This document shows positions 9,001 to 50,692 of a stretch of DNA of 64,000 nt, one piece after another (positions within the stretch are counted from its first letter, which is position 1; the number at the start of each line of letters is the position of its first letter). Location of the stretch: the NCBI RefSeq assembly GCF_003334305.1, contig NZ_QOWS01000016.1; one strand, 5' to 3'. The stretch comes from Escherichia coli. Lineage in GTDB: Bacteria; Pseudomonadota; Gammaproteobacteria; Enterobacterales; Enterobacteriaceae. Made by a program: the position numbers and the translations under genes. The notes beneath the pieces were generated by a model. That model was given only the letters and a program-made list of their open reading frames with translations. It did no database searches and was not told the origin of the DNA.

Positions 9001-9966
9001 ATGGGCAAAGCAGTCATTGCAATTCATGGTGGCGCAGGTGCAATTAGCCGCGCGCAGATGAGTCTGCAACAGGAATTACGCTACATTGAGGCGTTGTCTG
9101 CCATTGTTGAAACCGGGCAGAAAATGCTGGAAGCGGGCGAAAGTGCGCTGGATGTGGTGACGGAAGCGGTGCGTCTGCTGGAAGAGTGTCCACTGTTTAA
9201 CGCCGGAATTGGCGCTGTCTTTACGCGTGATGAAACCCATGAACTGGACGCCTGTGTGATGGATGGTAACACCCTGAAAGCCGGTGCGGTGGCGGGCGTT
9301 AGTCATCTGCGTAATCCGGTTCTTGCCGCCCGGCTGGTGATGGAGCAAAGCCCGCATGTGATGATGATTGGCGAAGGGGCAGAAAATTTTGCGTTTGCTC
9401 GTGGCATGGAGCGCGTCTCGCCGGAGATTTTCTCCACGCCTTTGCGTTATGAACAACTACTGGCAGCGCGCAAGGAAGGGGCAACCGTCCTCGACCATAG
9501 CGGTGCGCCACTGGATGAAAAACAGAAAATGGGCACCGTGGGGGCCGTGGCGTTGGATTTAGACGGCAATTTGGCGGCAGCCACGTCCACAGGCGGAATG
9601 ACCAATAAATTACCCGGACGAGTTGGCGATAGTCCCTTAGTGGGTGCCGGATGCTACGCCAATAACGCCAGTGTGGCGGTTTCTTGTACCGGCACGGGCG
9701 AAGTCTTCATCCGCGCGCTGGCGGCATATGACATCGCCGCGTTAATGGATTACGGCGGATTAAGTCTCGCGGAAGCCTGCGAGCGGGTAGTAATGGAAAA
9801 ACTCCCTGCGCTTGGCGGTAGCGGTGGCTTAATCGCTATCGACCATGAAGGGAATGTCGCGCTACCGTTTAACACCGAAGGAATGTATCGCGCCTGGGGC
9901 TACGCAGGCGATACGCCAACCACCGGTATCTACCGTGAAAAAGGGGACACCGTTGCCACACAGTGA
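9001..9966 (+). CDS. iaaA: Isoaspartyl dipeptidase / L-asparaginase-like Ntn hydrolase
   Basis: 321 aa; Ntn-hydrolase autoproteolytic GTVGAVALD region; first gene of the iaaA-gsiABCD operon. Confidence 0.9.
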
Positions 9967-11824
9967 TGAACTTGATGCCGGTAATGTGCTGGCGGTTGAA
10001 AATCTGAATATTGCCTTTATGCAGGACCAGCAGAAAATAGCTGCGGTCCGCAATCTCTCTTTTAGTCTGCAACGCGGTGAGACGCTGGCAATTGTTGGCG
10101 AATCCGGCTCCGGTAAGTCAGTGACTGCGTTGGCATTGATGCGCCTGTTGGAACAGGCGGGCGGTTTAGTACAGTGCGATAAAATGCTGTTGCAGCGGCG
10201 CAGTCGCGAAGTGATTGAACTTAGCGAGCAGAGCGCTGCACAAATGCGCCATGTTCGCGGTGCGGATATGGCGATGATATTTCAGGAGCCGATGACATCG
10301 CTGAACCCGGTATTTACTGTGGGTGAACAGATTGCCGAATCAATTCGTCTGCATCAGAACGCCAGTCGTGAAGAAGCGATGGTCGAGGCGAAGCGGATGC
10401 TGGATCAGGTACGCATTCCTGAGGCACAAACCATTCTTTCACGTTATCCGCATCAACTCTCTGGCGGGATGCGCCAGCGAGTGATGATTGCGATGGCGCT
10501 GTCATGCCGCCCGGCGGTGCTGATTGCCGATGAGCCAACCACCGCGCTGGATGTCACTATTCAGGCGCAGATCCTGCAATTAATCAAAGTATTGCAAAAA
10601 GAGATGTCGATGGGCGTTATCTTTATCACTCACGATATGGGCGTGGTGGCAGAGATTGCCGATCGGGTACTGGTGATGTATCAGGGCGAGGCGGTGGAAA
10701 CGGGTACCGTCGAACAGATTTTTCATGCACCGCAACATCCTTACACCCGTGCGCTGTTAGCTGCTGTTCCGCAACTTGGTGCGATGAAAGGGTTAGATTA
10801 TCCCCGACGTTTCCCGTTGATATCGCTTGAACATCCAGCGAAACAGGCCCCCCCCATCGAGCAGAAAACGGTGGTGGATGGCGAACCTGTTTTACGAGTG
10901 CGTAATCTTGTCACCCGTTTCCCTTTGCGCAGCGGTTTGTTGAATCGCGTAACGCGGGAAGTGCATGCCGTTGAGAAAGTCAGTTTTGATCTCTGGCCTG
11001 GCGAAACGCTATCGCTGGTGGGCGAGTCTGGCAGCGGTAAATCCACTACCGGGCGGGCGTTGCTGCGCCTGGTCGAATCGCAGGGCGGCGAAATTATCTT
11101 TAACGGTCAGAGAATCGATACCTTGTCACCCGGCAAACTTCAGGCATTGCGCCGGGATATTCAGTTTATTTTTCAGGACCCTTACGCTTCGCTGGACCCA
11201 CGTCAGACCATCGGTGATTCGATTATCGAACCGCTGCGTGTACACGGTTTATTGCCAGGTAAAGAAGCGGCTGCACGCGTTGCGTGGTTGCTGGAGCGCG
11301 TGGGCCTGTTACCTGAACATGCCTGGCGTTACCCGCATGAGTTTTCCGGCGGTCAGCGCCAGCGCATCTGCATTGCTCGCGCGTTGGCATTGAATCCGAA
11401 AGTGATCATTGCCGACGAAGCCGTCTCGGCGCTGGATGTTTCTATTCGCGGGCAGATTATCAACTTGTTGCTCGATCTCCAGCGTGATTTCGGCATTGCG
11501 TATCTGTTTATCTCCCACGATATGGCCGTGGTAGAGCGGATTAGTCATCGTGTGGCGGTGATGTATCTCGGACAAATTGTTGAAATTGGTCCACGGCGCG
11601 CGGTCTTCGAAAACCCGCAGCATCCTTATACGCGTAAATTACTGGCGGCAGTTCCGGTCGCTGAACCGTCCCGACAACGACCGCAGCGTGTACTGCTGTC
11701 GGACGATCTTCCCAGCAATATTCATCTGCGTGGCGAAGAGGTGGCAGCCGTCTCGTTGCAATGCGTCGGGCCGGGGCATTACGTCGCACAACCACAATCA
11801 GAATACGCATTCATGCGTAGATAA
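9953..11824 (+). CDS. gsiA: Glutathione ABC importer, ATP-binding subunit (two ABC domains)
   Basis: Track ORF extends to 9845 inside iaaA; TTG at 9953 preceded by AGGGG gives 623 aa starting (M)PHSDELD. Two Walker A motifs (GESGSGKS twice). Confidence 0.85.
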
Positions 11825-11843
11825 CATTCAGGCGGAGAATAAA

Positions 11844-48153: not shown

Positions 48154-49163
48154 CGCGGCAGTTTTCCGTGGTCGCGTAGCCAGGCGGCAGTTTTCTCGAT
48201 ACCTTCATCCAGGGTGATGACCGGCTGATAACCTAACTCTTCCTGCGCACGCGTAATATCCAGCGTAAAGTCAAAATTCAACTTGGAGACGCCGTAGTGG
48301 GTCAGCGGCGGCTCTTTTGCTGACTTGCGGCCTAAACGCTCCATGCTGCGGGCGATCATATCCAGCATCGGGTAGGGGACGGAACGAATACGACAGTCAA
48401 TATTCAACTCGTCGATCAGCTTCTGCACGATGCTGCGCAGTGTGCGATGCTCGCCGTTGGTGATGTTGTACACACGCCCGGAAGGTAGCTTATCGCAGGC
48501 TTCCTGGCTTGCCAGCCACATTGCGTGCACGGCATTTTCATAGTAGGTCATATCGACCAGCGCACTGCCGCCATGCGGTAACAGAATACTGCCGTAGTGG
48601 TGCATCATATGCGCCAGACGGGGAATAAAGACTTTATCGTGCGGTCCGAACAGACTTTGTGGGCGCAGAATAGTAAAGCGCGTTTGTGGATTCGCCTGCG
48701 AAAGCATATTGATCACTTCTTCGCTGGCTGCTTTGCTGCGGGCAAACTCGTTGGCGAAGCGGTGAGGGCGAAAATCTTCTTTAATATCGCGATGGTGGTG
48801 ATAATCGAAGTACAGGGAGGGGGAAGAGATATGAATAAAGTTACGCACACCCCAGGCGACAGCCCATTCACCCAGGCGGCGAGTGGCGCGAACGTTAGCC
48901 AGATCGAAAGCCTGTTGTGTCCCCCAGGGTGAGGTAAAGCTGGAGCAGTGCCACAGCGTATCAATGCCCGCGAGCATCACTTTAGCTTGTGATGAAACCA
49001 GCTCGGTCAGATCCGCCGGAACAAACTCTGCGCCCATTTTTTCCAGCAATTTGCCCATTGCCTCGTTGCGACCGGTCGCTCGCACGCTGATGCCTTTCTG
49101 GCATAAAAACTCTACCGCGTTTCGACCTAAGCCGCTGGTGGCGCCGGTAACCAGTACCTTCAT
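48150..49163 (-). CDS. ybjS: NAD(P)-dependent epimerase/dehydratase-family protein
   Basis: ATG 49163 gives 337 aa starting [17 protein letters not shown] (Rossmann motif). Confidence 0.8.
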
Positions 49164-49261
49164 ATCAATCCACTGTTGTTGAGAAAATAACGTGCGCATT
49201 CTTCCGTGATTTCCCCCATGATGCAATGGGAAACATGAAAGAATAACGCAGGTTTTGTCGA

Positions 49262-50692
49262 TTAATCTGTGCTTTGTTCTGCCAGTCTGGCGATTTGTTT
49301 TGCCATTCCGCGAAAAATAAACAGATGCGCGGGGATCATCAATAACCAGTAAAACAGCCCCGGCATACCGTGCGGATGCCAGAAAGCGCGGACATCGATA
49401 GTACGATAGTCGCCTTTATCTTCCAGGCTAAAACACAGTCGTCCCAGCCCCGGCGCTTTCATGCCAAATAACAACGTAAGTTGTTTTTCCGGTTCAACGA
49501 CAATCACTTTCCAGCTATCTACCGCATCGCCAGTCTGTAAATATTCGCGCTCCGGGCGGCCTTTCGCCAGCTTATGACCGATCGCGCGGTCCATCAACGC
49601 CCGTGTCTGCCACAAAATATTGCCAAAGAAATAACGCTCTTTACCGCCGATTTGGTTCACTACCTGCCATAAAGCAGCAAGGCTGGCGGACGTTTTAACG
49701 GTAAACCCCGCCTGTTTGGCAAAATAACCGTACTCCGGTCGCCAGCGGGCAAAGGCCTGAGCGTCGTAGCCCCAGTCGCTGGAGTTGACCAGTTTTTCCT
49801 CCTCTTTCAACGTGCTACGTACCGCGTCATCGAAAGCGATCAGCCGTTGTGGGATGAGTGCACGTAGCGCGGTATCATCCGCCAGCAGATCGTGTTTCAG
49901 CCCCTGAATCAACGCCCTGGCGGTGGTGGGCGGTACGGAAGTAATCACATTGAGAAACCACACCGAAATCCAGCGGGTGGGGAGGGGGATGGGGATCAAC
50001 CAGCGGCGCTTACCGCTCACCGCCATAAAATGTTCAAACTGTTGCTGATAACTGAGCACCTCTGGTCCGGCGGCTTCGAAGATGCGGTGTTCGCTGGCCG
50101 GATGATCTAACAACGCCACCAGATAGTGCAGCAAGTTTTCCAGCGCGATGGGCGTGGTGCGTGAACGTACCCAGCGTGGCGGCGTTAACACTGGCAGGTT
50201 GTAGACCATATCGCGCATGACTTCGAACGCCGCTGAACCTGCGCCAACGATAATTCCGGCCCGAAGTTCGGTCACAGGTACATTCGATTCACGAAGAATG
50301 TCCGCCGTAGCCTGACGAGCACGCAGATGATCCGACTGCTCATGTGGCGGGGCCTGCAACGAACTGAGAAAGATTAATTGCTTAACTGGTACTTCACGTA
50401 GCGCATCGCGGACGTTGAGAGCCACCTGGCGCTCCTGAGCGATAAAATCGCCGCCTTCGCCCATGCTGTGCACCAGAAAATAGACGGTATCGATATCCTG
50501 CAACAGGGCCGAAAGGTTATCCGGCCAGCTGAGATCGACTTTATGGCAACTGACGTTTGCCAGTTGCAGCTTTGCAAGCCTGTCGACATGACGTGCCGCC
50601 GCCAGGATCTGATGCCCTTGCTGGCTGAGTGTGCGCACCAGATGCTGACCAATGTAGCCACTGGCACCGAGAACTAAAATGCGTTGCGGCAC
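49262..50692 (-). CDS. ybjT: NAD(P)-binding SDR-like protein with extra C-terminal domain
   Basis: GTG 50692 gives 476 aa starting (M)[18 protein letters not shown]. Confidence 0.8.

Follow-up and report, generated by a model that had tools for sequence, protein, structure and literature searches.

Introduction

Overlaps of −4 and −1 nucleotides (nt) couple the translation of adjacent genes in Escherichia coli and are enriched among subunits of complexes (Huber et al., PMC6728339, PMC10666635); they are also the commonest intergenic spacings in this species, and reporter assays on E. coli gene pairs found coupling to be tight at −4 and −1 and gone by about +20 nt (PMC10666635). The genes considered here lie in a 64,000-nt stretch of the E. 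coli chromosome (RefSeq assembly GCF_003334305.1, contig NZ_QOWS01000016.1), referred to at its full length as the window; the subjects are its overlapping gene pairs and the non-ATG start codons of gsiA, potG, and ybjT. Like the coupled pairs of Huber et al. (PMC6728339, PMC10666635), pairs in the window are co-directional and overlap by 4 or 1 nt, and in several cases (potH/potI, artQ/artM, and macA/macB) both genes code for subunits of the same complex. A minor E. coli class with gaps of about +10 nt (PMC10666635) accommodates ltaE/ybjT (10 nt), potG/potH (9 nt), and hcp/hcr (11 nt); unlike the typical overlap classes, iaaA/gsiA (−14) and ybjC/nfsA (−17) overlap at greater length.

ATG accounts for about 88% of annotated E. 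coli starts (INRI-seq, PMC9825163). Purifying selection has been reported to maintain AUG starts (Belinky et al., 2017; PMC5622118), and prokaryotic GUG and UUG starts serve as sub-optimal codons backed by a good Shine-Dalgarno (SD) sequence. The three starts in the window resemble those starts in this respect; in contrast to the reported AUG-maintaining selection, potG and ybjT keep GUG or UUG without turning to AUG.

In operons for ATP-binding cassette (ABC) importers, intercistronic spacers with repetitive extragenic palindromic (REP) sequences or other hairpins occur downstream of binding-protein genes, the malE-malF spacer being the type. The spacer between potF and potG appears comparable, as a GC-rich palindrome likewise separates the binding-protein gene (potF), which it follows directly, from the ATPase gene (potG); it has no Rfam match. 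Candidate roles for it are stabilization of the potF mRNA and attenuation ahead of potG.

The window is equivalent to the ybiU-macB segment of K-12 (58 K-12 MG1655 coding sequences mapped by blastn), and its genes are 95-100% identical to those of K-12, with no indels. A 3-kb piece around the first of the coordinates considered has matches in all 5,426 complete E. coli genomes, many of them at 100%.

Results and Discussion

Start Sites of gsiA, potG, and ybjT

The start sites of gsiA, potG, and ybjT are, with high confidence, ordinary bacterial initiation sites at which an SD element leads a weak codon, and all three are already annotated. The initial annotation of the window, a reading of its letters without database searches, had placed gsiA at TTG 9953, potG at GTG 37424, and ybjT at GTG 50692. 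Each is the coordinate given by both reference annotations, RefSeq (strain 2012EL-2448) and K-12 MG1655 (genes at 9953-11824, 37424-38557, and, on the minus strand, 50692-49262). The window comes from another strain than K-12, and starts, stops, and start codons of the named genes are identical, without a difference, in the K-12 annotation (NC_000913.3: b0829 gsiA, b0855 potG, and b0869 ybjT) and in that of the RefSeq Prokaryotic Genome Annotation Pipeline (PGAP). The elements at the three junctions are as follows.

9940-9942, plus strand: AAA codon of iaaA at the position of the TAA stop of relatives, from aligned junctions; the loss adds eight codons (KGDTVATQ)
9941-9946, plus strand: SD of gsiA, AAGGGG, inside the 3′ end of iaaA and 6 nt before the start codon
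9953-9955, plus strand: TTG start codon of gsiA, annotated in RefSeq and K-12
9964-9966, plus strand: TGA stop of iaaA, giving a 14-nt overlap with gsiA (9953-9966)
37330-37423, plus strand: non-coding potF-potG spacer, 94 nt, with a REP-like hairpin (about 37344-37373), a small hairpin (about 37377-37393), and an unused ATG (37343)
37413-37416, plus strand: SD core GGAG of potG, within the conserved GCCGGAGAG, 7 nt before the start
37424-37426, plus strand: GTG start codon of potG, annotated in RefSeq and K-12
50699-50705, minus strand: TAAGGAG, the stop of ltaE (50705-50703) fused to the SD of ybjT, 6 nt before the start
50690-50692, minus strand: GTG start codon of ybjT, annotated in RefSeq and K-12

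The starts are backed in four ways: by conservation of the start position in orthologs, by the best SD pairing within each open reading frame (ORF), by homologs that never reach the upstream extensions, and by the N-terminal registers of solved paralogs. In duplexes with the 3′ end of 16S rRNA, for which random window positions give a background median of −2.5 kcal/mol, each annotated start has the best energy among the in-frame candidates of its ORF (−7.8 for gsiA, −6.6 for potG, and −9.2 kcal/mol for ybjT). The gap between SD and start is 6 nt for gsiA (AAGGGG), 7 nt for potG (GGAG), and 6 nt for ybjT (AAGGAG), all within 5-9 nt, and the earliest conserved element of the domain, either the opening strand of the ABC fold or the Rossmann motif, follows 5-20 codons past each annotated start. 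These start positions, SD elements, and patterns of conservation are direct observations.

The gsiA duplex lies beyond the 5th percentile of random window positions, and among six in-frame candidates (ATG 9845, ATG 9854, GTG 9935, TTG 9953, GTG 9986, and ATG 10019) a good SD occurs only at the TTG. All 13 relative loci examined (about nine distinct junction sequences) have a start codon at the orthologous position. Salmonella, one Klebsiella-like locus, and Enterobacter-like loci have GTG there (from the DNA of ten relative loci); TTG occurs in another Klebsiella-like locus (L085) and a second Escherichia lineage, and Erwinia has ATG. Relatives carry TAAGGAG or TAAGGGG at the SD position, and four distinct relative junction sequences have in-frame stops 12, 15, or 18 nt upstream of the start, which exclude a longer gsiA ORF. 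Orthologs of GsiA begin MPHSDELD, VPHSEKLD, or MPQTHETD at the aligned position; homologs cover 88% of a query extended upstream, so that the alignment begins at the annotated start, and the N-terminal register agrees with that of solved DppD.

The 14-nt overlap of iaaA and gsiA is, from the aligned junctions, a recent by-product of a TAA-to-AAA change that cost iaaA its stop in the Escherichia lineage. In relatives, iaaA ends ...Tyr-Arg-Glu-TAA, with the TAA forming part of the gsiA SD and the gsiA start following after about 12 nt; the junction reads ...TAYCGNGAA-TAA-GGAG in relatives and GAA-AAA-GGGG in Escherichia. The AAA is shared by an Escherichia lineage with only 88% identity to the window (loci L084-L093 and L096-L097 compared), and the overlap is Escherichia-specific, not conserved across species. 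With its stop changed, iaaA gains eight codons and runs across the SD and the TTG as far as the TGA, which creates the overlap and leaves the SD and the UUG of gsiA inside the last iaaA codons. Ribosomes translating iaaA would terminate 9 nt beyond the UUG and could reinitiate there.

In two relatives, Salmonella enterica subsp. arizonae (L084) and L088, iaaA is missing between moeA and gsiA and the GTG start of gsiA is kept; the gsi operon therefore has no need of an upstream iaaA. A 1-nt deletion ten codons into gsiA (equivalent to window positions 9983-9985) occurs in strain CDE6306 (L094), where the gene is annotated as a frameshifted pseudogene, and N11D (AAT to GAT) is the common E. coli population variant at the junction.

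For potG, the comparison set comprised 80 Enterobacteriaceae loci centered on artQ with 10-kb flanks, 42 of which contain the potF-potG junction. The aligned start codon in these 42 species is GTG in 28 and TTG in 14, never ATG. GCCGGAGAG is near-invariant at a fixed distance from the start, with a few one-base variants (ACCGGAGAA and GCCGGAGAA) and the GGAGA core present in 42 of 42. Spacer lengths run from 94 to 270 nt and do not preserve the frame (no multiple of 3), and a stop codon directly precedes the potG start in several species. Realistic candidates between the upstream stop and the ABC fold number two, ATG 37343 and GTG 37424, with SD duplexes of +1.1 and −6.6 kcal/mol, respectively. 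Homologs cover 91% of a query that starts at the ATG, which corresponds to alignment from the GTG onward, and residues 12-343 of PotG align to residues 10-340 of solved PotA. potG probably initiates on its own, after a structured non-coding spacer behind potF.

Within that spacer, the small hairpin (GCACCAU-CAU-GGUGCGC) recurs with base changes in its stem in Enterobacter, Citrobacter, and Leclercia, and other sets of hairpins are present in Kluyvera, Cedecea, and Buttiauxella. Rfam places no family in the spacer or at any of the junctions, and the z-score of the spacer fold is only −1.35. The minimum-energy fold of the window sequence pairs 37333-37340 with 37414-37422, a long-range helix that would hide the potG SD and had suggested a distant coupling to termination on potF; it was rejected because K-12 and 2012EL-2448 carry an uncompensated A for T at 37419 and other genera do not have the 5′ arm.

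At ybjT, the start lies 10 nt past the stop of ltaE, with that stop supplying the first three bases of the SD (UAAGGAG); with the stop fused to the SD and this spacing, ribosomes finishing ltaE would be placed to restart on ybjT. The arrangement TAAGGAG-N6-GTG is kept in 43 of 54 species, and the stop-start gap is exactly 10 nt in 38 of the 43; in ten more distantly related genera (Buttiauxella, Cedecea, and others) an ATG two codons farther upstream takes its place. Residue 9 is the first of the Rossmann motif GASGYIGQ, and the only in-frame candidates upstream of it are GTG 50692 and TTG 50767, the latter inside ltaE. Homologs cover 91-92% of the extended query, placing the alignment from the GTG; no solved chain matches YbjT at E ≤ 1e-10. 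The start is ATG in 7 of 4,984 complete E. coli genomes with the junction, a rare natural upgrade of the codon; in the one of these that was checked (strain AMSHJX01, L099), the PGAP start is unchanged.

Several points weigh against this account of the three starts. INRI-seq (Table S2 of PMC9825163) reports in vitro start peaks on short synthetic transcripts of every E. coli gene, together with re-analyzed in vivo retapamulin data. Of the three, potG alone gave an in vitro peak, a weak one in 2 of 5 replicates; gsiA and ybjT lacked one (in vitro, about 30% of annotated starts go undetected), and none of the three has a peak in the re-analyzed in vivo data (about 82% undetected). The constructs begin about 30 nt upstream of the annotated starts, which puts upstream ATGs outside their reach. 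No N-terminal peptide evidence was found for the three starts, the TRAINSPOTTER and Salmonella riboproteogenomics supplements having no entries for these genes; the best solved-structure matches of GsiA and PotG are paralogs (PotA, DppD, OppD, and the like), among which no experimental N-terminus was found. Ortholog protein N-termini, moreover, are not independent on their own because gene callers share rules. With detection at 70% in vitro and 18% in vivo, the missing peaks are uninformative, and stops, spacer lengths, and SD elements at the DNA level are independent of gene callers. A full-text literature search returned nothing relevant on the start or initiation codon of gsiA or potG, nor on ybjT with ltaE.

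Gene Overlaps and Translational Coupling

Reading of the junction sequences bore out the five stop/start overlaps that the initial annotation had listed (moeA/moeB, ybjJ/ybjI, potH/potI, ybjQ/amiD, and macA/macB), all in agreement with curated annotation; the list was incomplete, however, since artQ/artM and ybjC/nfsA had been left out and iaaA/gsiA mentioned but not counted. The overlaps besides iaaA/gsiA are given below.

7560-7564, minus strand: moeA stop/moeB start, TAATG, 1-nt overlap at 7562
28562-28566, minus strand: ybjJ stop/ybjI start, TGATG, 1-nt overlap at 28564
33617-33633, plus strand: ybjC/nfsA overlap of 17 nt; the nfsA start has in vitro and in vivo peaks
39517-39520, plus strand: potH stop/potI start, ATGA, 4-nt overlap, kept in 51 of 51 species
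43942-43946, minus strand: artQ stop/artM start, TAATG, 1-nt overlap at 43944, kept in 80 of 80 species
47323-47326, plus strand: ybjQ stop/amiD start, ATGA, 4-nt overlap, −4 in 61 of 77 species and −1 in 10
62757-62760, plus strand: macA stop/macB start, ATGA, 4-nt overlap

With iaaA/gsiA included, the spacings of these same-strand pairs are −1, −1, −1, −4, −4, −4, −14, and −17, with +10 for ltaE/ybjT; conservation across species was followed for potH/potI, artQ/artM, and ybjQ/amiD. Overlaps occur in 8 of 37 same-strand neighbor pairs of the window, and this frequency, like that of non-ATG starts (6 of 59, counting 58 tabulated coding sequences and the ATG start of macB), is nothing beyond the usual. 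The start codons and overlaps are known from curated annotation and textbook operon architecture, and the finding is sound and ordinary.

The 1- and 4-base overlaps (moeA/moeB, ybjJ/ybjI, potH/potI, artQ/artM, ybjQ/amiD, and macA/macB) would be the usual layout for termination-reinitiation coupling, as a rule between subunits of the same complex. Coupling at the window pairs is a reasonable inference from the overlaps. The rival possibility is that compaction of the genome and turnover of stop codons left the overlaps as by-products, with downstream genes initiating independently through their own SD. In favor of that possibility, the iaaA/gsiA overlap arose by a single stop loss in Escherichia while relatives work with a 12-nt gap, most downstream genes have an SD of their own, and ybjI, potI, and nfsA gave in vitro peaks from isolated initiation regions. 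No such peak came from moeB, amiD, macB, artM, or gsiA, as coupling would have it, but detection of 3 of 8 downstream regions is not significantly below the 70% baseline (p ~0.06, hand-calculated binomial). Against it stand the invariance of the overlap geometry across genera at potH/potI and artQ/artM while neighboring spacers drift, and the loss of coupling with distance in the reporter assays on other E. coli pairs (PMC10666635). Independent initiation throughout is on balance unlikely, and termination-reinitiation remains the preferred reading of the 1- and 4-nt overlaps.

Selection on Sub-optimal Start Codons

Comparison with neutral sites suggests that the sub-optimal codons of gsiA, potG, and ybjT may be held in place more tightly than such sites, on what is single-site evidence. 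Four-fold degenerate sites with G in the window have A in at least one species at 35 of 38 positions in potG and 14 of 14 in ybjT (92-100% of such sites acquired A); the first base of the start is never A, and the aligned start is never AUG in the 43 potG sequences (42 species plus the window) or in any of the 54 ybjT species. The neighboring starts of potH, potI, artI, artQ, artM, artP, artJ, and ybjS are ATG in every species examined. Within E. coli, the potG junction with its start changed to ATG had no exact match among 4,635 matching genomes, and the 63-nt gsiA junction with ATG or GTG substituted had none among 5,423.

A single, tentative reading joins these patterns to the history of iaaA: selection may keep the weak starts of the three genes as expression limiters, and the iaaA stop loss may have shifted gsiA initiation from a 12-nt gap behind that stop to a site within iaaA itself. 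If so, weak starts would hold two ABC-transporter ATPase genes, gsiA and potG, below the level of the binding proteins. Belinky and colleagues reportedly concluded in 2017 that overall selection for maximal initiation is weak. The small additions made here (conserved non-ATG starts at potG, ybjT, and gsiA, and the recent iaaA stop loss) illustrate the setting and drift of expression ratios within operons; they fit established principles and are, like the structured potF-potG spacer, of modest interest.

Alternative Start Codons

Use of another nearby codon, such as GTG 9935, GTG 9986, or ATG 10019 for gsiA or an internal GTG for potG or ybjT, is very improbable. Such codons are in frame, and start mapping gave no peak for gsiA or ybjT; however, the second Escherichia lineage has GCG in place of GTG 9935, relatives have an in-frame stop downstream of that position, and Salmonella has GTT at codon 9986. 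Starting at ATG 10019, potG 37526, or ybjT 50638 would cost the protein the opening ABC-fold strand or the Rossmann GxxGxxG; SD pairing at the nearby codons is poor throughout (no stronger than −3.0 kcal/mol), and the N-termini of GsiA (MPHSDELD), PotG (VNDAIPRPQAK), and YbjT are conserved from the annotated codon onward.

That the longest ORFs are real (gsiA from ATG 9845, 659 residues; potG from ATG 37343, 404 residues; ybjT from TTG 50767, 501 residues) is hardly credible and can be regarded as effectively refuted by the comparative data: the frames are open in the window and ATG-led for gsiA and potG, the potG ATG is only 13 nt past the potF stop, and accession versions NP_415376.4, NP_415390.4, and NP_415350.2 indicate that the protein records have been revised, but no homolog aligns to any of the three extensions, in-frame stops 12-18 nt upstream interrupt that of gsiA in relatives, that of ybjT is unconserved, SD elements are lacking at 9845, 37343, and 50767 (−1.5, +1.1, and −2.8 kcal/mol), and 25-36 extra residues would precede domains that begin within about 10-20 residues in solved paralogs. 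The 404-residue potG ORF in particular was refuted by its ATG at −81, found only in E. coli among the 42 species, by the variable, out-of-frame, hairpin-made spacer, by the missing SD, and by the register of homologs and of PotA.

The annotated starts of the three genes stand as preferred, and the longer ORFs are probably artefacts of extending each frame to the first possible start after a stop codon. Over-extension of five further N-termini by the mechanical ORF list had also been claimed, and it is confirmed for all five by the ORF and annotated starts.

fsaA: mechanical ORF start 6003, annotated start 6075
gsiB: mechanical ORF start 11577, annotated start 11844
pdeI: mechanical ORF start 15334, annotated start 15412
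potF: mechanical ORF start 36067, annotated start 36217
artP: mechanical ORF start 46243, annotated start 46144

About twenty other genes are over-extended in the same list, so that the longest-ORF rule mis-sets about half of the N-termini in the region; the main value of the comparison is as quality control, curated starts being recoverable from a reading of the letters alone. The annotated starts of fsaA, gsiB, and pdeI have in vitro INRI-seq peaks, and those of artP and potF are supported by conservation instead. For artP, potF, artJ, ybjS, and potI, the start is ATG in 27 of 29 (potF) to 80 of 80 species, and their extensions are excluded by in-frame stops that some species carry 0-6 codons upstream.

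Gene by gene, the initial list of non-ATG starts was right for gsiA, potG, and ybjT and incomplete, having passed over three GTG starts.

32252, minus strand: GTG start of ybjL, with almost no SD (−1.1 kcal/mol) and no start-site peak
32522: GTG start of ybjM, with an in vivo retapamulin peak (INRI-seq Table S2)
34400: GTG start of rimK, with an in vivo retapamulin peak (INRI-seq Table S2)

Other Features of the Window

Two RNAs were recognized by Rfam: the small RNA RybB (105 bits; 30409-30487, minus strand), between rcdA and ybjL, and naRNA4/CssrE, a REP-derived nucleoid-associated RNA (78 bits; 43162-43242, plus strand), between artJ and artM. The fsaA-moeB spacer has 103 extra bases in strain 2012EL-2448 (L001, 6635-6812) relative to the window (6738-6812) and K-12, probably an inserted repeat element. 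Three convergent pairs share 4 nt where their stop codons meet: yliI/gstB (22287-22290), amiD/ybjS (48150-48153), and ybjD/ybjX (60538-60541).

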